Positions 6,360 to 18,008 of a DNA stretch of 64,000 nt are shown piece by piece (positions within the stretch are counted from its first letter, which is position 1; every line of letters begins with the position of its first letter). Below the pieces are notes generated by a model, which worked only from the letters and a program-made list of their open reading frames with translations, made no database searches and had not been told where the DNA came from. The stretch comes from Nitrospiria bacterium (GTDB taxonomy: Bacteria > Nitrospirota > Nitrospiria > JACQBZ01), in assembly GCA_035498035.1 (NCBI GenBank), contig DATKAN010000025.1, positions 17,190 through 81,189 of the forward strand, written 5' to 3'. Made by a program: the position numbers and the translations under genes.

Positions 6360-6575
6360 TTACTTCAGCGCCAGGTAATGTTCCGGATTCTTGTCGAACT
6401 TCTCCTTGCAGCTCTTCGCGCAGAAATAATACGTCGTGCCTTTATAAACGGAATTCCCCGCCGCCTTTTTCTCGTCGATCATCATCCCGCAGACCGGATC
6501 CTTTTCCACGATGGCTCCTTTTCTAATAAGATTAGAACGGATGAATTCATCTTGCTCTTTGTGTGCATCCCGCAT
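6360..6575 (-). CDS. YHS/TRASH-domain metal-binding protein
   Basis: VCGMMIDEK...YYFCAKSCKEKFDKNPEHY. Confidence 0.6.
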   Translation of the reverse strand: MRDAHKEQDEFIRSNLIRKGAIVEKDPVCGMMIDEKKAAGNSVYKGTTYYFCAKSCKEKFDKNPEHYLALK

Positions 6576-6613
6576 CCCGGGAGAAAGTTACACGGATCAG
6601 GGGGAAGACATCC

Positions 6614-7927
6614 TCAAAACTTGTTCAGCACCAACCCCGTCAGCGGCTTGGGATAGAAATAAGTGGATTTCTGCGGCATGCGGTCTCCGACCAGGACCAC
6701 GTCCCGCACCTGTCGGATCTTGGTCGGATTGAGGAAGAAGGCCAGACCGGCCGAACGGCTTTGGACCGCCTTGATCGCCTTCTCTTCGTCTTTGACAAAC
6801 TGGACCTGACCTTCCTTCTTGGCCGCGGGGTCGGTAATCCCCAATGCGCCTTCCAGGATGTTTTTTTGAAAGATCGAAACATCCAACCCCTCCAGAGCCT
6901 TGGAGGTCTTGGGCGCAAACTCCGGTTTCAGCTTCAATAAATGAAAAGAGGGCTCGCTCCCGGCGTACAGGCCGAAGACGGTCGCGGATTGGCCCGCCTT
7001 CGACATCTCCTCGAAAAGTTTTTTCCGAACCCGGGATTCCGTGGTGTTATTGAAGTCCATATGGGTCACGTCAAACGACTGCGCCAACCGATGCTTCAGG
7101 GTTTTTAGATCGCAGGGCAGCGGGTTCAGGATGACTCGGTGAATCGGCAGCAGCGAGATGCCGGCGTCATCCATGTTGGAGCAGAAAATAAAAACGGCCT
7201 CGTACGGTTTTGGCCCCGGGGAGGGATCCTTGGCCCTCATTTCGCCCATGAAGGTCAGGGCCGTCTCATAGCGATGATGGCCGTCCGCAATAAACAGGGG
7301 ATGATCCTTCATGGAGTCGCACAGGGTATCCACCACAGACGGCGTTGAAATCTTCCAGAGCCGGTGGCGGATCTCCTCTTCGCCGACGATATTGATCAGC
7401 GGATGGGCTTCATCGACCGAACGTTCCAACCCGGCGATCCGATCACCGCCCGGGTCGGAATAAAGCATGAAAATGGGACTGGTGTTGGCTTGGCAGGCTC
7501 GCATCAGCCGGAGGCGATCCTGTTTGGCCTTTGGAAAGGTAAACTCGTGCGGAAAAATCTTTCCTTTTCCGATTTCCTCCAGTTGAACCAGAGAAAAGAA
7601 ACCCTTCAGTGTTTTCTTCTCCTGGGTCGGCAAAAGGTAATCGAGTTTGTATAAATACAGGGACGGCTCGGAATCCCTTTCGAGCACTCCCTGTTTAACC
7701 CAATCTTTCAAATACGCCGCGGCCCGGGTGTAGCGGTTGTTTGTCGGACTGTCGTCGGGGTTCTCCTTGCCCAATTCCACCCGAATGATGTTGTACTCGT
7801 GGGCGTGATAATAGCGGTCCTGTGCCGGGCCATCGATGACGTCGTACGGCGGGCAGACCGCCTTGCGAAGATCTTTGACCTTATTGGCATTGAAACGAAG
7901 GCCTTGAAACGGTAAGAGAACAGCCAT
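6614..7927 (-). CDS. DUF1015 family protein
   Basis: N-terminus MAVLLPFQGLRFNANKV and length (437 aa) typical of DUF1015. Confidence 0.6.
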   Translation of the reverse strand: MAVLLPFQGLRFNANKVKDLRKAVCPPYDVIDGPAQDRYYHAHEYNIIRVELGKENPDDSPTNNRYTRAAAYLKDWVKQGVLERDSEPSLYLYKLDYLLPTQEKKTLKGFFSLVQLEEIGKGKIFPHEFTFPKAKQDRLRLMRACQANTSPIFMLYSDPGGDRIAGLERSVDEAHPLINIVGEEEIRHRLWKISTPSVVDTLCDSMKDHPLFIADGHHRYETALTFMGEMRAKDPSPGPKPYEAVFIFCSNMDDAGISLLPIHRVILNPLPCDLKTLKHRLAQSFDVTHMDFNNTTESRVRKKLFEEMSKAGQSATVFGLYAGSEPSFHLLKLKPEFAPKTSKALEGLDVSIFQKNILEGALGITDPAAKKEGQVQFVKDEEKAIKAVQSRSAGLAFFLNPTKIRQVRDVVLVGDRMPQKSTYFYPKPLTGLVLNKF

Positions 7928-10782: not shown

Positions 10783-10831
10783 TTGACAAACGGGCCGCCG
10801 CTCCTGTATTTTGAGAATCAGAATCAATTTC
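10783..10831 (+). promoter_or_regulatory. Putative sigma70 promoter (TTGACA-18-TATTTT) with overlapping Fur-box-like site upstream of fur
   Basis: TTGACA at 10783-10788, TATTTT at 10807-10812. GAGAATCAGAATCAATTTC (10813-10831) matches the GATAATGATAATCATTATC Fur box at about 13/19 positions. Confidence 0.35.
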
Positions 10832-10853: not shown

Positions 10854-11330
10854 ATGACCAAGGCACTGCCCTTGAACAAAGAAGTCGCTCGATTAAAAGA
10901 CTACCTGGCCGAGAAGCAACTCAAACTGACTCAACAGCGGGAAACGATCCTGGAAGCCTTTCTCAAGGTGGATCATATCACGGCCGAAGAACTGCATCGT
11001 CAGATCTCCCGGAAGGGACGCCAACGAATGGGCCTGGCCACCATCTACCGGACCTTGAACCTTTTGTGCGAAGTCGGCATCGGACAGCAACGGCACTTTG
11101 ACGATACCCGGACGATTTACGACAATGTGATCAACAAAAAGCACCACGATCACCTGATCTGTGATAAATGCGACAAGATTATCGAGTTTGAATCTCCCGC
11201 CATCGAACGGCTTCAGGAAAAAATGGCCGCCCGGCACGGCTTCACACTCAGCCATCACCGGCTGGAGCTCTTCGGACATTGCATCGATTGGGAAAAGTGT
11301 CGGGATTGGCAGAAGGCGGCCCCCCGTTGA
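10854..11330 (+). CDS. fur: Fur-family metalloregulator
   Basis: Fur DNA-binding helix and HHDHLIC...C..C metal-site motifs. Confidence 0.8.
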   Translation: MTKALPLNKEVARLKDYLAEKQLKLTQQRETILEAFLKVDHITAEELHRQISRKGRQRMGLATIYRTLNLLCEVGIGQQRHFDDTRTIYDNVINKKHHDHLICDKCDKIIEFESPAIERLQEKMAARHGFTLSHHRLELFGHCIDWEKCRDWQKAAPR

Positions 11331-11398
11331 TCATCCCCCAAAAACCCACTGACATGAAACGACGAACCGTTTTTCCCGATACGAACCGGCGAACAAGG

Positions 11399-11737
11399 AT
11401 GAAGAGGGGCGCGGCCTTGCATTTTGGTCTCCTACTCGGGCTCGGGCTATGGCTCCTCGGCACGGCGGACGCGGAGGATGGGATCCGCATTCTCATCAAG
11501 GATCATCGCTTCTCCCCCTCCGAGGTCAGGGTGAAGGCCAATACGAAGGTGAAATTACTCGTGAGCAATGAGGATGAAACCGCCGAGGAATTCGAAAGCT
11601 TCAGTCTCAACCGGGAAAGGGTCGTGCGCGGCGGCCAATCCATCACGATCTTCCTTCCCCCGCTTAAACCGGGCAGCTATGACTTCTTCGGGGACTTCCA
11701 TCCGGACACGGCCCAGGGAAAGGTCATTGCCGAGTAG
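11399..11737 (+). CDS. Secreted cupredoxin-like domain protein (Cupredoxin_1/EfeO-N/FtrB-like, no type-1 Cu ligands)
   Basis: Signal peptide MKRGAALHFGLLLGLGLWLLGTADA. Cupredoxin_1-type strand pattern (IKDHRFSPSEVRVKANTKVKLLVSNED). Immediately upstream of the FTR1 permease. Confidence 0.55.
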   Translation: MKRGAALHFGLLLGLGLWLLGTADAEDGIRILIKDHRFSPSEVRVKANTKVKLLVSNEDETAEEFESFSLNRERVVRGGQSITIFLPPLKPGSYDFFGDFHPDTAQGKVIAE

Positions 11738-11808: not shown

Positions 11809-12630
11809 ATGCTTGGAACGTTTATCATTACATGGAGAGAAACCATCGAGGCCGCCCTGATCGTGGGTATTTTGTTAACCTACCTGAACAAGATCGGCCA
11901 GTCCAAACAGTTTCGCTTTGTGTATTGGGGCGCGCTCTGGGCGGTTTTGGCCAGCCTGATCTTCGCGGGAATGTCCGATTACCTGTCCGTGTTCTTCAAG
12001 GACATCGGCGAGGATATATTTGAAGCGGCCATCCTGTTCCTCGCGACCGGCGTTTTGACTCACATGGTGATCTGGATGCATCACAACGCCCGGGAGATCA
12101 AAGGGGCGCTTCAACACGAGGCGGAACTGGCGATTTCCAAGAACCGGCTGTGGGCCCTGGCCACGTTGGCTTTTGTGGGTGTGTTTCGTGAAGGCATGGA
12201 GACGGTCCTTTTTCTCTGGGGTTTCTTCTTGCAAGGAGGAGGGATAACTTCGGTCGCCCCTCCGGTGATGGGCGGACTTCTGGGGGTCGGGCTCGGCGTC
12301 CTGATGACCTGGCTCTTTTTCAAGGGCTTCGGCCACCTCGACCTGAGACCGTTTTTCCGGGTGAGCGGGTTCATCCTCCTTTTTATGGCGGCCGGCATGC
12401 TCTCCTCGGGAATCGGAAAGCTGGTCTCGGTGGGACTGGTTCCTCCGTTGATGGAACCGATCTGGAACACTTCCTGGTTTTTGAGCGAGCGTTCGCTTTT
12501 GGGGTCTCTGGTCGCGGGTATTTTTGGGTATCGTTCCAGCCCTTCGCTGATCCAGGCCCTCTTCTATCTCTTTTACTTTCCCATCACCCTGATTTGGCTC
12601 CGGCGGCAACGCCACGATCTGGCACAGTAA
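11809..12630 (+). CDS. FTR1/EfeU-family high-affinity iron permease
   Basis: Two REXXE motifs (RETIE, REGME) in TM helices; about 7 TM segments. Confidence 0.8.
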   Translation: MLGTFIITWRETIEAALIVGILLTYLNKIGQSKQFRFVYWGALWAVLASLIFAGMSDYLSVFFKDIGEDIFEAAILFLATGVLTHMVIWMHHNAREIKGALQHEAELAISKNRLWALATLAFVGVFREGMETVLFLWGFFLQGGGITSVAPPVMGGLLGVGLGVLMTWLFFKGFGHLDLRPFFRVSGFILLFMAAGMLSSGIGKLVSVGLVPPLMEPIWNTSWFLSERSLLGSLVAGIFGYRSSPSLIQALFYLFYFPITLIWLRRQRHDLAQ

Positions 12631-12638
12631 GGATGGAC

Positions 12639-12833
12639 ATGGAAACCAACGGGAAACACAAAGCGGCCTCGGATCAACCGAACTCACATGAAGTTCGGTG
12701 CGAATGCGGCAGTCTGGTCGCAAAGCTGGTGGGCTCCGCGATCGAACTTAAATGCAGGCGCTGTAAACGACTGGCGCTGATCCCGCTGTCTAATTTCAAT
12801 GGAGGATCGAAAACAGTAACGGTTCGACTGTAA
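12639..12833 (+). CDS. Com-like zinc-finger small protein (Mu Com family)
   Basis: VRCECGSLVAKLVGSAIELKCRRCKRLALIP parallels the Mu Com RCxxC...IEIRCPRCKR zinc finger. SD AAGGA 6 nt upstream. Confidence 0.5.
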   Translation: METNGKHKAASDQPNSHEVRCECGSLVAKLVGSAIELKCRRCKRLALIPLSNFNGGSKTVTVRL

Positions 12834-13023: not shown

Positions 13024-14202
13024 ATGAAACAACGATTGATTCTTCTTTCGATGGTGGTTTGTCTGGGTGTGGGTCTCGGCCGGGATGAAATGGCCGCGGC
13101 CGAATCCGAAGAAGGCACAAAGATCAGTTTTTACGGCTACGGCGAAATGCACTACAACAGCCCGTTTGTGAATTCAGACCGCGGAGGGTTTCCATCGACG
13201 GATGACCGGACAACCATGGACTTCCATCGGTTGGTTCTCGGCTGGGGCGTGCCGTTCAACGACCGGATCCGATTTCAGGGTGAGGTGGAATGGGAACACG
13301 CCGGGCAGGAAATAGAACTGGAGTTCGGCTACCTGGAGTTCGACCTGACCCCCGGACTCCAGGCTCGAGTGGGCAGCCTACTCATGCCGGTCGGGGATCT
13401 CAACGAGTTTCATGAACCCACGCAGTTCTACAGTGTCGAGCGTCCGTATGTTCAGCGTTTCCTGATTCCAACCACTTGGCAGGAAGGCGGCGCGGGGCTG
13501 GTCGGCAGCCTGTCCTCTGGACTCAACGCGCGGGTTTACTATGTGACGGGGTTGGACGCGAGTCAATTCAGTGCCAATAACGGACTCGGCGAGATCGTCC
13601 CGTTGTCCGAGGATCTAAAAGGGGCGGATCAGATGGCGGTCGTGGGCCGGATCGAATATGTCGGGCTGCCCGGGATTCAAGTGGGAGGTTCTTACTATAC
13701 CGGAGGGGCAAGCCAGCGAACCGAGAACTCCTGCATCGCGCCGTGCTCCTCGGTCGTGCCGAAAGGCGTCGCCGTGTCCCTTTGGGATCTGGACCTTCAT
13801 GCCCGCCGTGGGCCTTTCGAGGCGCGCGGAACCTACATCATGACCCATGTCAGCGGAACCGAGGACCTTTCGACCGCGCTGGATCAAACCATTGGAGAGG
13901 AGATGACCGGCGGAATGGCCGAGATCGCCCTTCACACCTTGCCCCTCCTCCTTCCGGGCACCGAACAGGACCTCGTCTTATTCGGTCGGATCGAGCATTT
14001 TAACACCCAGGCCAAGGTTGCGGGCGGGGCCGCGGCCGCGACCGGCCCGGCCGATGAGGCCAACGACCGCCGGGTGATCACCTACGGCATCACCTACTTT
14101 CCCCACCGAGATGTCGCGCTGAAGATCGACCAGGAGCGCTGGCGCGATGGGGCCGATCAAACCGGGCATCGCACAAACCTAGGGATGGCGTTCATGTTCT
14201 AA
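13024..14202 (+). CDS. Outer-membrane beta-barrel porin (OprO/P-like pattern)
   Basis: Signal peptide, alternating beta-strand composition, C-terminal Phe (...MAFMF). AAGGAGG SD. Confidence 0.6.
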   Translation: MKQRLILLSMVVCLGVGLGRDEMAAAESEEGTKISFYGYGEMHYNSPFVNSDRGGFPSTDDRTTMDFHRLVLGWGVPFNDRIRFQGEVEWEHAGQEIELEFGYLEFDLTPGLQARVGSLLMPVGDLNEFHEPTQFYSVERPYVQRFLIPTTWQEGGAGLVGSLSSGLNARVYYVTGLDASQFSANNGLGEIVPLSEDLKGADQMAVVGRIEYVGLPGIQVGGSYYTGGASQRTENSCIAPCSSVVPKGVAVSLWDLDLHARRGPFEARGTYIMTHVSGTEDLSTALDQTIGEEMTGGMAEIALHTLPLLLPGTEQDLVLFGRIEHFNTQAKVAGGAAAATGPADEANDRRVITYGITYFPHRDVALKIDQERWRDGADQTGHRTNLGMAFMF

Positions 14203-14204
14203 CG

Positions 14205-15716
14205 ATGCTGCAATTGAAACGGATTCATATGGGAACCCCTTGGGAGATCAGGGCCCATGGAACTCCCCCCGATGAGCGTCGGGCGGTCGAGGCGGCCGAT
14301 CAGGAGATCGAGAGGGTTGAATCGCTCCTGTCCCGCTTCCGACCCGGCAGCGAAATCTCCCGGATCAACCGCTGCAACGGCCCGTGCAGAATAAGGATCA
14401 ATCCCGAGGTCGGCCGGGTCATCGCCGAGGCGTTGCGGTATGCCGTCTTGACGGAAGGGGCCTTCGATCCGACGGCCGGAGCGCTGAGCCGGCTGTGGGG
14501 ATTCGGACCGGAAGGGCCGCGTACGGTTCCGCCCGACGAGGAACGGATTCAGGCGACGATCGAGCGTCTCGGTTATCGGCAGGTCTGTATCGACGAAGTC
14601 CGTTTTGAATTGACTCTCCGTCGACCCGGGATGGAAATCGACCTGGGCGGGATGGGAAAAGGTTATGCGGTGGACCGGGCCGTCGCCGTCCTGAAAGAAA
14701 ACGGGATCAACCGTGCATGGGTCAGCTGCGGGAGCACGGCCTTTGCCTTGGGCCCTTCAAAACATCACGATGCCTGGAGGGTCGGAATCCGGGATCCGAG
14801 CGGTTCCGGCAGGATCATCCAGACCGTTCAAATACGTGATCGGGCCATTGCAACCTCCGGGGCCTATGAACAGTTCTTCAACTACGAAGGAAGACGGTAC
14901 GGCCACATCTGCGATCCGCGCACAGGCTACCCTGCAGCCGGATCGGCCGGCGTCACCGTGATCGCGCCCACGGCGACCGAGGCCGACGCGTTATCAACGG
15001 CCGCTTTTGTCTTGGGAGCCCGATCCGGAAGGGCCCTGCTGGATTTGCAGGAGGAAGTAGAAGCCTGCTTCTTTGAAGTCCGGGCCGGGAGCTTTTCGAT
15101 TAAGACCACCCGGAATTGGAAACGGGTTTGCTCGGGAGGATTGAACCGGCGACGGTTTCTCGTCGGCTTGATGGCCGCGGCGGGACTTCTGGTTCTGAAA
15201 CCGCCCGCCGTGTCCGGAACGGTCTACCTGACGGACGAAGAAGCCCTTCGCCTGATGATGCCGGAAGGCCGGGAGTTTAAGAAGGAAACGGTGACCCTCA
15301 CCGATCCACAGGCGGCCGAAATCAGCCAGCGGCTGGAAAAACGGATCGAGGAGAATGTTTACACGTTCTATCGAGGGACCGGTTCGGATTCCGCGGTGAC
15401 GATCGGGTACGCGGTCGTCCTCAACGTCATCGGAAAGGAGAGGCCGATCACCTTCATGGTCGGGGTCGATCCTCAAGGCCGGCTCATCGGGATCGAGGTC
15501 CTGACCTACCGTGAATCGCGCGGCTCGGAGATCCGGTCCAAACGTTTCATCAATCAATTTATCGGAAAGACCCTGGACGCGCCTTTGAAGCTGGGCCGGG
15601 ACATTGACGGCATCAGCGGCGCGACTCTTTCCTCCCGCTCCACGGCCTACGCGGTGAAAAAAGCCCTGGCCCTCGCTCACGTTGTTTATGGCATCCACGC
15701 GGAGAGTTCCCCATGA
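14205..15716 (+). CDS. ApbE-family FAD:protein FMN transferase fused via a Tat-like internal anchor to a C-terminal FMN-binding domain
   Basis: ApbE motifs GGMGKGYAVD and HICDPRTG. Then NRRRFLVGLMAAAGLLVL. Then an FMN_bind domain with the flavinylation motif DGISGATLSS. Single continuous ORF. Confidence 0.75.
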   Translation: MLQLKRIHMGTPWEIRAHGTPPDERRAVEAADQEIERVESLLSRFRPGSEISRINRCNGPCRIRINPEVGRVIAEALRYAVLTEGAFDPTAGALSRLWGFGPEGPRTVPPDEERIQATIERLGYRQVCIDEVRFELTLRRPGMEIDLGGMGKGYAVDRAVAVLKENGINRAWVSCGSTAFALGPSKHHDAWRVGIRDPSGSGRIIQTVQIRDRAIATSGAYEQFFNYEGRRYGHICDPRTGYPAAGSAGVTVIAPTATEADALSTAAFVLGARSGRALLDLQEEVEACFFEVRAGSFSIKTTRNWKRVCSGGLNRRRFLVGLMAAAGLLVLKPPAVSGTVYLTDEEALRLMMPEGREFKKETVTLTDPQAAEISQRLEKRIEENVYTFYRGTGSDSAVTIGYAVVLNVIGKERPITFMVGVDPQGRLIGIEVLTYRESRGSEIRSKRFINQFIGKTLDAPLKLGRDIDGISGATLSSRSTAYAVKKALALAHVVYGIHAESSP

Positions 15717-16210
15717 AGGATTTCAGCAAAAAGGGATTCCGGATCGCGAACAGTTCTCCGGAGATCAAAATCATCTATACCGGATTTCTGATCTTCGCGT
15801 TCATCGGCTATTTTACGATTGCGTTGCTTGGATGTCTCCGGGTCGGGCCGAATTACAACGCCATCGTGTCCCATTACCGGGGCTCCGACCTCGATGAAGA
15901 GGCCTTCGGCCAGCCCATCGGCCAGATGTTGGAAGACGCCCATTCTCACGCCTTTATCGAGGGACTGATCCTGCTGGTCCTGACGCATCTGTTCATCGGC
16001 GCCGCCGTCCCGAAACGATGGAAGTTCGCCGTGGTCCTGCTGGCCTTCGGCAGCACGCTGGCCGATCTGGCCAGCCCCTGGCTGATCAAATATGTCGCCC
16101 CCGGTTTTGCCCATCTTCAGATGGCCAGCTGGGCCGGCATGGAAACGAGCGCGCTGCTTCTGATCGGGTGGCCGCTGTATGAAATGTGGTTCAAAGGAGA
16201 AGGAGAATGA
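15713..16210 (+). CDS. 4-TM integral membrane protein, His-rich (uncharacterised)
   Basis: Four hydrophobic helices with several conserved-looking His (SHAFIEG, THLFIG, FAHLQ). ATGA overlaps on both sides (operonic). Confidence 0.5.
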   Translation: MKDFSKKGFRIANSSPEIKIIYTGFLIFAFIGYFTIALLGCLRVGPNYNAIVSHYRGSDLDEEAFGQPIGQMLEDAHSHAFIEGLILLVLTHLFIGAAVPKRWKFAVVLLAFGSTLADLASPWLIKYVAPGFAHLQMASWAGMETSALLLIGWPLYEMWFKGEGE

Positions 16211-16632
16211 AGCGAATCGGATGGATCTGGGTCGCGGGACTGATTCTGATCGGGGCCGGGCCGGCATGGCCGGACGCGAAAAAATCCGACGGAGACCTCC
16301 GGCGAATCACGGTCCGGCTTCAGGAATATCATTTCGAACCGGCCGAGATCCGGCTGAAGGTCGGCGAGGAGGTTGAGCTCACCCTGATCAATGACGGAAC
16401 GGTCATGCACGAGTTTATTACCGAGGCGCTGCAGACGCTGACCGTGGATGTGGAAAACAACGGGATTATCACCGGCACGCTCGGCGTGACCGAGCTTGAG
16501 ATTCCTCCCAAGGCCCGCGCCGTGCTTCGTTTTACCCCGGAGAAACCGGGAGAGTTTTCTATCGCCTGCCATGCCAAAGCACCGAAGGATCACTATCAAG
16601 AAGGAATGAGAGGGCGTCTTCAGATCCGGTGA
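16207..16632 (+). CDS. Periplasmic type-1 copper cupredoxin (Cupredoxin_1 family)
   Basis: Signal/anchor MKRIGWIWVAGLILIGAGPAWP. Ligand set H (VMHEF), C-H (IACHAK), M (EGM). Confidence 0.65.
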   Translation: MKRIGWIWVAGLILIGAGPAWPDAKKSDGDLRRITVRLQEYHFEPAEIRLKVGEEVELTLINDGTVMHEFITEALQTLTVDVENNGIITGTLGVTELEIPPKARAVLRFTPEKPGEFSIACHAKAPKDHYQEGMRGRLQIR

Positions 16633-16723
16633 GCTTCGATCCAGTCTTGGAGAATTTTTGCGAAGATTGACAAACGGACTGAAGTTTGCCAATGTAGCGC
16701 GAATCTGTTCATTGGGACCCCGG

Positions 16724-17137
16724 ATGAAATCGTTCTTGAAAAAATTGGCGGCCGTTGTGCTCGCATTGGGGTGGGCACTGCTCGGATCAGGTTTGGCCCA
16801 GCAACCCTGGCAAACGGTCGAGATTAAGGCGGAAGAGTACAGCTTTACTCCCCGTCGGATTGAGGCCAAGGCGAATCGACCCCTCGAACTGGTGATCGAG
16901 AACGAAGGCCACGAACCTCATCAGTTCCGGTCCGAGCTTCTCAAGGATCAGATGGTCGAGGTCGAAATCGGTCAAAACACGGTCCGGGGCCGCAATATCG
17001 AGGTGGTCGACGTCGCCCCCGGCAAGACGGCCCGGATCAAACTCCTTTCCCCGCCCGCGGGAGAGTTTGACTTCCAGTGCCGCATTCCCAGTCATCATGG
17101 AATGGACGGGATGATCCTGATCGAGGCTGATCCATAA
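16724..17137 (+). CDS. Periplasmic type-1 copper cupredoxin (Cupredoxin_1 family), paralog
   Basis: Signal peptide MKSFLKKLAAVVLALGWALLGSGLA. Ligands H (GHEPHQF), C (FQCRIP), HH, M (GMDGM). Confidence 0.65.
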   Translation: MKSFLKKLAAVVLALGWALLGSGLAQQPWQTVEIKAEEYSFTPRRIEAKANRPLELVIENEGHEPHQFRSELLKDQMVEVEIGQNTVRGRNIEVVDVAPGKTARIKLLSPPAGEFDFQCRIPSHHGMDGMILIEADP

Positions 17138-17231
17138 ATAAACCAGCTCGCAAAGCGTGCGGGATGGGGAGGCTCCATCCGGCTTTGCCGATGGAGGGGG
17201 CGACGCGAGCCCCTATGAAAGGAGAGACCGG

Positions 17232-18008
17232 ATGTTCAGAATGAAGCTTGGCCTCATCCTGGCCGTATGGCTCGTCTTGGCGTTCTCGACCCAAACCCAT
17301 GCGATCGAATTCAAAGTTTATTTCTATTCAACGCCGGGCGAAGGAGAGACGGAGCTCGCCTATTGGTGGACTTATACCGCCAAATCGGAACATTCCTACG
17401 ATTACTTCGGGGAGCTCTTGGACAAACAGGGCCTTCAACAGCATTCGCTGGAGGTCGAATACGGACTGACGGACCACTGGACCATCGGGGGTTACGCCGA
17501 TTTTCAACAACCGAAAGACGGGGATTTCAGATACGTCCAGGCGCGGGCGGTCGTTTCGCGGTATCGCTTTTTTGAGCAGGGCGAGCGCTTTCTCGACGGG
17601 GCGATCGAAGTCGAGTACAACCTTCCCCGCGAGAAGTACAGCGCAAACGAAGAGCTCGAGGCACGGGTTATTCTTGAAAAAGACCTGGGCCAATTCTCCA
17701 TCGTGGTCAATCCAATATTTGAAAAAGACGTCAGCGGACCCGAGGTCGACCAAGGGATGGAATTCCAGTACGCCACGGGTCTGTACTACAGGGCGTCTCC
17801 CCGCCTGACGCCTGGCGTCGAATTCTACGGCGATATGGGTCCGTTGGGCCATCTGGACCCCAAAAGCCAGCAGCAGCATTATATCTTCCCGCGTCTGGGA
17901 CTCAAATTTTCCCGCAGCGTCAATCTGGACATCGGATACGGTTTCGGACTGACCAAGGGCAGCGACGATCAGGTGATCAAAGCCATTTTGGAGTTTGAGT
18001 TCCTATAA
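17232..18008 (+). CDS. Putative outer-membrane beta-barrel protein
   Basis: Signal peptide MFRMKLGLILAVWLVLAFSTQTHA. Alternating aromatic/polar strands. C-terminal ...EFEFL. GGAGAG SD. Confidence 0.5.
   Translation: MFRMKLGLILAVWLVLAFSTQTHAIEFKVYFYSTPGEGETELAYWWTYTAKSEHSYDYFGELLDKQGLQQHSLEVEYGLTDHWTIGGYADFQQPKDGDFRYVQARAVVSRYRFFEQGERFLDGAIEVEYNLPREKYSANEELEARVILEKDLGQFSIVVNPIFEKDVSGPEVDQGMEFQYATGLYYRASPRLTPGVEFYGDMGPLGHLDPKSQQQHYIFPRLGLKFSRSVNLDIGYGFGLTKGSDDQVIKAILEFEFL

Follow-up and report, generated by a model that had tools for sequence, protein, structure and literature searches.

An ApbE flavin transferase fused to its own FMN_bind substrate through an internal Tat-type segment in Nitrospiria, with predicted flavinylation before export

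Introduction

The stretch of DNA analysed here (64,000 nucleotides from a Nitrospiria bacterium, contig DATKAN010000025.1 of assembly GCA_035498035.1, hereafter the window) carries on its forward strand, at positions 14205-15716, a gene for a single protein in which an ApbE domain (flavin adenine dinucleotide (FAD):protein flavin mononucleotide (FMN) transferase), an internal segment resembling a twin-arginine translocation (Tat) signal and an FMN_bind domain follow one another. The fusion is, with near certainty, a genuine, conserved and selected feature rather than the product of a lost stop codon. For its function we propose that the ApbE domain flavinylates the C-terminal domain in the cytoplasm, and that the folded flavoprotein would then be exported by the Tat system via the internal signal, a reading drawn from sequence to which we give a probability of about 0.6.

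Cofactor-bearing proteins that work outside the cytoplasm are either loaded in the cytosol and exported by Tat, or exported unfolded by Sec and supplied with the cofactor externally (Rivera-Lugo et al., PMC9973259). The known ApbE systems belong to the Sec class and need the export of FAD (PMC9973259). An earlier note on this DNA, made from the sequence alone, had called a genuine fusion of enzyme and substrate a topology puzzle, because ApbE normally acts outside the cytoplasm; the puzzle does exist, and the best answer to it is flavinylation in the cytoplasm with Tat export afterwards.

The fusion gene and its conservation

Two sets of sequences recur throughout the text: the alignment A1, of 52 family sequences, which is the basis of the counts of residue invariance, and the type-A homologs, 111 intact sequences with the order ApbE, segment with twin arginines (RR), FMN_bind. 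The gene and its parts, in window coordinates, are the following:

14205..15716, + strand: fusion gene (ApbE, internal Tat-type signal, FMN_bind), an open reading frame (ORF) of 503 amino acids (aa) with two Pfam domains
14229..15071, + strand: ApbE (FAD:protein FMN transferase) domain, residues 9-289, delimited by Pfam PF02424 and supported by structure comparison
15141..15215, + strand: putative internal Tat-type signal, residues 313-337, with LN-RR-RFL, the hydrophobic h-region VGLMAAAGLLVL and the c-region KPPAVSG
15147..15152, + strand: twin arginines R315-R316 (CGG CGA), invariant in 52/52 sequences of A1 and in 111/111 type-A homologs
15216..15713, + strand: FMN_bind (RnfG/NqrC-like) domain, residues 338-503, predicted to be exported, mature N-terminus TVYLTDEEAL
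15606..15626, + strand: flavinylation motif D468-G-I-S-G-A-T474, matching D-x-x-[S/T]-G-A-[S/T] (PMC12052999)

The ORF that the earlier note had placed here was borne out, and so were the motifs it had read in it, GGMGKGYAVD, HICDPRTG (as GHICDPRTG), NRRRFLVGLMAAAGLLVLKPPAVSG and DGISGATLSS, each of which is present in the sequence. No start codon lies between 14205 and the in-frame stop that precedes it, which rules out a longer N-terminus; the upstream gene ends at 14202.

A search among 5.8 billion proteins returned 3,875 matches, the best 120 of which were inspected. Both the ApbE and the FMN_bind domains were recognised by Pfam in 120 of these 120, which are 41-100% identical to the query and normally some 440-555 aa long, save for a few shorter and apparently truncated ones; all the source names given for them are Nitrospirota (Nitrospira, Nitrospiria, Candidatus Manganitrophus). 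In the 111 intact homologs (42-100% identity), coming from many samples and assemblers, the order of the domains is the same and the ORF is continuous in 111/111. The identical protein is found on three contigs, and the product of a gene neighbouring the fusion is 100% identical to a protein from a Nitrospiria metagenome-assembled genome.

The earlier note had left undecided whether the enzyme and its substrate are truly fused or whether two adjacent genes had been merged by the loss of a stop codon, real or introduced by sequencing or assembly. A 207-aa protein (P0124) resembling the C-terminal half alone would fit such an artefact. The conservation of both domains in one ORF argues decisively the other way, as none of the 111 intact homologs has a stop between the domains. 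Nor could the loss of a stop codon simply have created the gene, because in the loci where the two domains are encoded separately the genes stand in the opposite order, FMN_bind and then ApbE. The artefact was rejected on these grounds, and its likelihood is negligible.

The enzyme domain

The N-terminal domain matches the Pfam ApbE profile PF02424 over its entire length (positions 1-266 of 266) with 286.9 bits (cut-off 25.6; E 2e-85). Its score against the NCBIfam equivalog of Escherichia coli ApbE, 162.9 versus a cut-off of 498, makes it a member of the ApbE family but not an ortholog of the E. coli protein. In the AlphaFold2 model, the predicted local distance difference test (pLDDT) exceeds 90 throughout this domain. 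Structure comparison with Foldseek matched it to solved structures of ApbE, Ftp and FmnB, with E values of 1e-23 to 1e-24 and template modelling scores, normalised to the target, of 0.83-0.92 against 4xdr, 7esb, 1vrm and 6nxi.

The N-terminal signal peptide or lipobox, which is typical of the family even if not universal, is missing. The alignments pair residue 9 with residue 17 of the 4xdt chain (Treponema pallidum Ftp) and residue 4 with residue 21 of 1vrm (Thermotoga maritima ApbE); because the ApbE core aligns from the start of these chains, and the ORF begins only 8 residues before the catalytic core, there is no space for either element. No hydrophobic N-terminus appeared in any of the type-A homologs examined. 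The full-length Pfam match, the structural alignments and the impossibility of extending the ORF thus uphold what had first been noticed by eye, namely, the hallmarks of ApbE unaccompanied by a signal peptide or lipobox.

The catalytic residues, whose absence from an alignment would have undermined that description, are all in place: S218, H234, D261, S264, T265, K152 and D157 are invariant in the 52 sequences. The first three match the Ser-His-Asp triad S241/H257/D285 of Vibrio cholerae ApbE, listed as conserved in the review PMC12052999; the correspondence was mapped by spacing (16 and 27-28 residues), not by alignment. In the alignment with T. pallidum and T. maritima ApbE, the catalytic residues fall in the segments TSG, HHI(I/L)DP and ADAL(A/S)T. 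D261 and T265 belong to the metal-binding ADALST segment, and the 4xdr variant has an Ala at the Asp aligned with D261, while K152 and D157 lie in GGxGKGYxxD. An aromatic residue on the isoalloxazine ring marks the FAD-binding transferase class, and a polar one the FAD pyrophosphatase class (PMC4767422); here the position, aligned with residue 55 of the T. pallidum chain, is F45, and it is occupied by F in 34 and by Y in 18 of the 52 sequences. The domain therefore keeps all the residues listed as conserved in the literature, and from its sequence it is predicted to be a Mg-dependent FMN transferase, moving FMN from FAD to a Thr or Ser.

The substrate domain and its acceptor motif

The C-terminal domain, taken in the earlier note for an FMN_bind domain with the sequence DGISGATLSS near its end, is recognised as such by three agreeing lines of evidence. 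Pfam PF04205 matches residues 410-488 (46.7 bits, cut-off 22; E 5e-12), Foldseek aligns the domain with RnfG (7zc6_G, 9eri_G) and NqrC with probability 1.0, and the flavinylation motif is present. The RnfG-type models of NCBIfam also match this domain, with scores so far below their cut-offs that it is not to be regarded as an Rnf subunit.

The motif D-x-x-[S/T]-G-A-[S/T] is the flavinylation signature, and its Asp has been called strictly conserved in a review (PMC12052999). The acceptor part, [S/T]GA[T/S], is present in 52/52 sequences of A1, position 474 being T in 46 and S in 6, and T474 is the predicted acceptor of a covalent FMN. The Asp of the signature, six residues before the acceptor (D468), is variable in this family, with D in 15/52, and it is the Asp at -8 (D466) that is kept, in 50/52 (residues 466-474, window positions 15600-15626). 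This pattern suggests a shifted recognition determinant in this FMN_bind subfamily.

The internal Tat-type segment

The two domains are joined by the twin-arginine, signal-like segment that the earlier note had already singled out. Its sequence N-R-R-R-F-L-V resembles the Tat consensus S/T-R-R-x-F-L-K, and the comparison of the 111 type-A homologs shows which of its positions are kept. Both arginines are present in 111/111, F at +3 in 88/111, L at +4 in 88/111 and S, T or G at -1 in 75/111, whereas position +2 varies, with R in 71, Q in 18 (89 for R or Q together) and K in 3. The uncharged stretch after the RFL region is most often 14 (35/111) or 16 residues long (16/111). RR and the conserved Tyr of the mature VYLT sequence lie exactly 26 residues apart in 88/105; 60/105 have a Pro at -6, 99/105 a small residue at the putative -1 position, and 63/111 a basic residue in the c-region. 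In the window protein, the putative signal-peptidase site is V-S-G|T, after G337. The putative -3 position is mixed across type-A homologs (G 44, E 17, S 10, Q 10), which makes cleavage itself uncertain. In the AlphaFold2 model, residues 315-330 form a helix with a low-confidence linker on either side.

Tat signals are recognised by a set of features that includes a helix-breaker and a Sec-avoidance charge (PMC7317946). The segment has an h-region of at least 12 residues, a helix-breaker, a basic c-region residue and a -3/-1 site. The feature it lacks is a free N-terminus, since the motif begins at residue 315, behind a folded domain of about 300 residues. The anatomy is thus that of a cleavable Tat signal peptide in everything except position, and from this sequence pattern export is predicted to depend on Tat and on the arginine pair.

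A free N-terminus could be had if the ORF gave rise to two proteins. In this alternative, initiation at an in-frame TTG before NRRRFL, which the earlier note had held conceivable, would produce an N-terminal Tat precursor, and the full-length product would be minor or non-functional. The sequence on which it was built is present: there is a TTG at 15141-15143 preceded by GGGAGGA, and a few homologs have a Met 2-3 residues ahead of RR (7/111 at -2). Initiation there did not stand up. GGGAGGA is a Gly-Gly codon pair that abuts the TTG with zero spacer, and neither the start nor the Shine-Dalgarno (SD)-like sequence is conserved: a Met within 12 residues upstream of RR is found in only 15/111 homologs, locus L001 has no in-frame start codon within 14 codons of RR, and L002 and L004 have no SD-like sequence ahead of the candidate starts. 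Moreover, the frame is open across the junction in 111/111 and the linker residue W305 is kept in 48/52, which would be unexpected if the two parts were translated independently. The proposal was rejected as quite improbable.

A second alternative keeps the full-length protein and reads the segment as an ordinary signal anchor of the Sec, signal recognition particle (SRP) and YidC route, oriented N-in, C-out, with its arginines serving the positive-inside rule; FMN would be added before or during Sec export, or else ApbE would serve another cytoplasmic substrate. The anchoring of RnfG and NqrC, whose fold the C-terminal domain shares, by an N-terminal helix is in line with this, and so is the acceptance of short unstructured tags by ApbE. 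The positive-inside rule would, however, allow Lys, yet both Arg are invariant while the position next to them varies, and a Sec anchor leaves unexplained why F and L are kept at +3 and +4. A stretch of about 14-16 uncharged residues with Lys/Arg-Pro and a -3/-1 site behind it has the anatomy of a signal peptide, not of an anchor of 20 residues or more. With the relatives discussed below also taken into account, we consider the Sec anchor unlikely, though far from negligible.

Relatives and the type of signal they carry

The 204 C-terminal aa, searched against 1.84 billion representative proteins, gave 4,253 matches, among which the FMN_bind subfamily is recognised by the mature N-terminus VYLTxEEAL. 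This subfamily comes in three architectures. Architecture A is that of the window, ApbE, RR segment and FMN_bind. Architecture B is a standalone protein of about 190 aa with an N-terminal signal directly before VYLTxEEAL, exactly where the internal segment sits in A. Architecture C is a reverse fusion, confirmed by Pfam, of signal, FMN_bind and ApbE, which includes proteins of anammox Planctomycetes. The reverse fusions, presumably exported whole, are the following:

L007 639-2330; L013 5863-7626; L025 5857-7629: reverse fusions of anammox Planctomycetes, with Sec-like N-terminal signal, FMN_bind and ApbE
P0174, P0193, P0223, P0230, P0262, P0210: reverse-fusion proteins, P0210 with an extra BNR-repeat region

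A scan of contigs with the family alignment returned mostly generic ApbE genes, with no close type-A loci among the matches listed; the reverse fusions of anammox bacteria turned up in it.

In architecture A, 111/111 proteins have an RR-x-hydrophobic motif ahead of the mature domain, against 3/79 of B and C together, one of these three resembling a truncated A. Comparing A with C, a signal-less ApbE goes with a Tat-like signal on the substrate, and an ApbE co-exported behind an N-terminal signal goes with a Sec-like one. The rarity of RR among relatives with a co-exported ApbE (3/79) is a further argument against the Sec anchor.

The same comparison bears on a third alternative, in which the whole protein, ApbE included, would reach the periplasm by an unrecognised route and be flavinylated there. 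Canonical ApbEs are periplasmic, and the reverse-order fusions, exported whole via their N-terminal signal, are a precedent. No N-terminal signal exists, however, in the window protein or in any homolog, and the sole targeting signal lies C-terminal to ApbE; where both domains are exported, as in the reverse fusions, the signal is N-terminal and lacks RR. This route is highly improbable.

Loci in which the subfamily is not fused to ApbE offer further combinations. In L089, a Tat-type FMN_bind protein (KRRTFI...VWA|Q) is encoded beside an ApbE that starts at its core (MREIHQARYVMGT). In L091, a Sec-type FMN_bind protein stands beside a separate ApbE (6461-7567) with an N-terminal Tat signal of its own (MDEPPMGPSLTRRSFLTQLLAGSVAGGALVSSVLAWA), which looks, on sequence, like a third solution, the enzyme itself being Tat-exported. 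In L090, no ApbE adjoins the FMN_bind gene, whose signal begins MNRRSLILF.

The membrane partner and the iron cluster

The gene directly after the fusion encodes a membrane protein of the family Aq_1264_TM, which was located in the window and in ten further loci:

15713..16210, + strand: Aq_1264_TM (PF27139), four-helix membrane protein, whose start overlaps the stop codon of the fusion (ATGA)
Further type-A loci: L001 9576-10115; L002 9599-10093; L004 9503-9997; L086 8498-9040; L087 8527-9018; L088 8521-9012
Unfused loci: L089 6708-7322; L090 5649-6161; L091 7639-7989; L092 1763-2254

In the window and the six further type-A loci, Aq_1264_TM (163-180 aa) directly follows the fusion, often with overlapping start and stop codons. 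In the unfused loci it stands directly after FMN_bind (L090) or after an interposed ApbE (L089, L091 and L092). Aq_1264_TM is hence found just downstream of the FMN_bind subfamily in 11/11 of the loci that were looked at, those with a fused ApbE as well as those with a separate one or none. Its invariant residues include H54, H77, H79, H92, E17, E74 and E83, together with several Trp, and AlphaFold2 models it (pLDDT 87.7) as four long helices forming a membrane bundle. Our guess is that it may be the membrane redox partner of the FMN_bind domain, and a candidate for an undescribed flavinylation-associated type.

The fusion and Aq_1264_TM lie in an iron cluster with these further members:

10813-10831: Fur-box-like site GAGAATCAGAATCAATTTC, 23 nucleotides upstream of the fur start codon
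10854..11330, + strand: Fur-family regulator heading the iron cluster (Pfam FUR, E 6e-34)
11279-11737: cupredoxin-like protein before FTR1 (Pfam Cupredoxin_1, E 3.9e-28)
11809..12630, + strand: FTR1/EfeU iron permease (Pfam FTR1, E 1.4e-45; NCBIfam EfeU 211 bits, below the 255-bit cut-off)
13024..14202, + strand: outer-membrane beta-barrel-like protein of 392 aa, with signal peptide and C-terminal ...NLGMAFMF, directly upstream of the fusion
16186..16632, + strand: cupredoxin of 148 aa (Pfam Cupredoxin_1, E 1.6e-10), downstream of Aq_1264_TM
16658..17137, + strand: second cupredoxin, 159 aa (Pfam Cupredoxin_1, E 3.4e-15)

The 392-aa protein matches no Pfam family even at E<=5. Orthologs in the same position are 40-47% identical in L001, L002, L004, L086 and L088, and about 30% identical in L089 and L091. 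We take this protein for a probable outer-membrane beta-barrel and a member of the module. A cupredoxin of about 140 aa after Aq_1264_TM is also part of the module in L002, L003, L004 and L005. In the window and in L001, L004, L086, L087, L088 and L090, no more than a few genes separate a Fur gene from the module. The Fur-box-like site departs from the 19-bp E. coli consensus at 5 positions, and the 64 kb hold just one other site that matches as well. Across the loci, the flanking genes encode Fe(III)-type ATP-binding cassette (ABC) transporters, a TonB receptor with PepSY_TM, ferritin with Bfd, and FeoAB.

Inspected by eye, the cupredoxins at 16186-16632 and 16658-17137 have Cys, His and Met near their C-termini (FSIACHAKAPKDHYQEGM and FDFQCRIPSHHGM, respectively) in a blue-copper-like arrangement, and the one adjoining FTR1 (11279-11737) has no Cys in its C-terminal region (FFGDFHPDTAQG). 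A second outer-membrane-like protein, of 283 aa (17157-18008, + strand), closes the cluster after the cupredoxins; it has a weak match to Phenol_MetA_deg (E 7e-4), below the Pfam cut-off.

Between FTR1 and the 392-aa gene there is also a small Cys-rich ORF on the + strand (about 12633-12833, within an ORF at 12594-12833), with RCxCGSLVAK...IELKCRRCKR, a zinc-ribbon-like CxC...CxxC pattern which we take to resemble the zinc finger of phage Mu Com. The ORF is conserved: in L001 (6400-6627) and L086 (5380-5598) its counterpart has Fur on one side and the outer-membrane gene on the other, and in L088 (5578-5766) it precedes the outer-membrane gene.

The gene order in L090 (3175-8650) is Fur, an 84-aa ORF, hemP, DUF6662 (outer-membrane-like), FMN_bind, Aq_1264_TM, FeoA and FeoB, so that the FMN_bind/Aq_1264_TM pair is here part of an operon for the uptake of ferrous iron.

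Since the fusion and Aq_1264_TM lie in Fur-linked iron-transport clusters, the module may be inferred to act in Fur-linked periplasmic electron transfer, most likely the reduction of Fe(III) for uptake. By analogy, it recalls the yeast system of reductase, ferroxidase and Ftr1 permease.

Proposed mechanism and its weighing

According to our proposal, the N-terminal ApbE domain would stay in the cytoplasm, as it has no export signal, and would draw on the FAD present there to load Thr474, in its own chain or in a partner chain, with FMN. Once folded and carrying its covalent flavin, the C-terminal domain would cross the inner membrane via Tat, directed by the internal signal of the S/T-R-R-x-F-L type (residues 313-337), which would insert as a loop or hairpin while the N-terminal part is kept inside. 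Signal peptidase would probably cut after V-S-G337, freeing a periplasmic flavoprotein; uncleaved, the segment would serve as a membrane anchor. Once outside, the flavoprotein would work with Aq_1264_TM, the cupredoxin and the outer-membrane barrel as a Fur-linked iron-redox module, where Aq_1264_TM would hand electrons over to the flavinylated domain or take them from it. The module would most likely be an assimilatory ferric reductase delivering Fe(II) to FTR1, Feo or ABC transporters. What the sequences themselves show is the fusion and how it is kept, the intact catalytic and acceptor residues, the make-up of the signal and the genes around it; the compartment of flavinylation, the dependence on Tat, the cleavage and the iron-redox role are what we infer. 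Flavinylation in the cytoplasm would remove the need for FAD export, since it is the extracytosolic ApbEs that need external FAD.

Several points weigh against this proposal, beginning with the fact that all the evidence for it is computational. Tat signals are normally found at a free N-terminus, and the known internal ones follow Sec-inserted helices (PMC5449189), unlike this one, which lies behind a soluble domain of 314 residues. A folded substrate is not strictly required for flavinylation either, because ApbE flavinylates tags of 7 residues (PMC12052999). The AlphaFold2 model of the fusion, with a mean pLDDT of 91.3 and a predicted template modelling score of 0.69, leaves uncertain the relative orientation of the two domains, including the docking of T474 in the ApbE site. 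A crude motif scan found no TatA in the 64-kb window, a result that is uninformative for the whole genome. In hydrophobicity, the h-region of type A (2.56) falls just short of the Sec-type relatives (2.63 and 2.83), as the Sec anchor would have it; so small a gap (p = 0.004) gives weak support to a discrimination between Tat and Sec.

The comparative evidence has its own weaknesses. The contrast in RR between A and B plus C (Fisher exact p = 4e-50, no phylogenetic correction) overstates the independence of the sequences, as every named type-A source is a member of the Nitrospirota; with type A apparently confined to one phylum, the 111/111 probably reflects one origin and strong purifying selection. 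Among the unfused loci, L092 (206-2254) encodes an FMN_bind protein with a non-RR signal (MRARVRQWILVAGALLLGWAQDVVA), then a signal-less ApbE (MTWVRHARYRMGT...), and then Aq_1264_TM, a combination that would suit the Sec anchor. A rule linking cytoplasmic ApbE with a Tat signal on the substrate is accordingly suggestive, not established, in such loci: L089 and L091 are consistent with it, L092 is inconsistent and L090 is uninformative. As for the partner, Aq_1264_TM had no fold match among the solved structures of the PDB and no description in the literature searched.

An extension of the proposal goes further, and we hold it to be rather doubtful. In it, ApbE, lying right beside the Tat signal, would also act as a built-in, single-use proofreading chaperone that holds back export until the domain is flavinylated; Tat would then export the cargo, and signal peptidase would part it from the enzyme. 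The fusion with Aq_1264_TM would form an unrecognised, Fur-linked flavin iron-reductase system of the periplasm. This protein would then be the first case of an ApbE system that loads its substrate before Tat export, and of a Tat signal behind a soluble enzyme.

Implications

If the proposed mechanism is true, there would be a second route of flavinylation, in which the flavin is attached in the cytoplasm and the finished domain is exported by Tat. This would matter because flavinylation by ApbE is regarded as extracytosolic and dependent on FAD outside the cell, while the extracytosolic supply of FAD is known only for the EetB/FmnA exporter, mostly in Firmicutes (PMC9973259). The targeting rules of Tat would likewise be extended to a signal working behind a soluble domain of some 300 residues, with neither a free N-terminus nor a membrane tether, and such an internal signal would probably escape signal-peptide predictors as well as surveys restricted to proteins with N-terminal signals. 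The mechanism should be of interest to specialists in both flavinylation and Tat. Aq_1264_TM and the FMN_bind subfamily constitute an uncharacterised, widely conserved pair in the iron-uptake clusters of Nitrospirota, a phylum that includes nitrite oxidisers and manganese oxidisers.

Comparison with known systems

The fusion is built from known parts: flavinylation by ApbE, the fusion of enzyme and substrate, the export by Tat of domains that already carry their cofactor, and Tat signals inside a protein. The literature searched contained no combination of ApbE flavinylation with Tat export of the substrate, nor with Nitrospira.

Canonical extracytosolic flavinylation, in which lipoprotein or secreted ApbE, Ftp or FmnB act on Sec-exported NqrC, RnfG, PplA, NosR or PceC, shares with the window protein the enzyme family, the catalytic residues, the substrate fold and the [S/T]GA[T/S] motif. 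The end product, a covalent flavin domain outside the cytoplasm, is predicted to be the same here. Contrary to those systems, this ApbE lacks both signal and lipobox and precedes its substrate in one chain, and the export signal is internal and of the twin-arginine type. Flavinylation here would precede export, so that no FAD supply of the EetB/FmnA type (PMC9973259) would be needed.

A signal-less N-terminal ApbE with a substrate in the same chain or in a cytosolic partner is also found in the fumarate reductases of trypanosomatids and in the cytosolic ApbE of Klebsiella pneumoniae (PMC12052999; bioRxiv 10.1101/2020.12.30.424822). In these soluble fumarate reductases, the substrate stays in one compartment and no targeting signal stands between the parts, whereas the substrate here is a small RnfG-like electron carrier that would be bound for the periplasm.

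The flavinylation-associated iron clusters surveyed in PMC8238504 (P19/FTR1 with an FMN-bind gene, and PepSY-like ferric reductases) likewise have FMN_bind and ApbE beside FTR1 or iron transporters, and the role proposed there is redox chemistry assisting iron uptake. Aq_1264_TM is absent from the NapH-, MsrQ-, PepSY-, DsbD- and NQR/RNF-like transmembrane systems of that survey, and there is no P19 gene here. The text of the survey mentions no fusions, and its supplement, as far as searched, has no Nitrospirota entries.

The reverse fusions and the unfused loci are closer relatives, with the same FMN_bind subfamily, the VYLTxEEAL sequence and 30-55% identity, and the unfused loci keep the Aq_1264_TM neighbour. 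They differ in having an N-terminal signal, mostly without RR, or an ApbE with its own Tat signal (L091).

Internal Tat signals, finally, are known from Rieske, molybdenum-cofactor (MoCo), polyferredoxin and YkuE proteins, where they invariably come behind helices inserted by Sec (PMC5449189). These dual Sec/Tat-inserted proteins (Tooke et al. 2017, PMC5449189) share with the fusion an internal RR before the last hydrophobic segment, basic residues after that segment and a cofactor domain, whose location outside the cytoplasm would here follow from the proposed export. Whereas the signal of those proteins is held at the membrane by 2-4 transmembrane helices that Sec inserts, here the signal follows a soluble enzyme of 314 residues with no transmembrane helix (residues 1-312), and the part that precedes the signal would be the maturation factor of the cargo itself.

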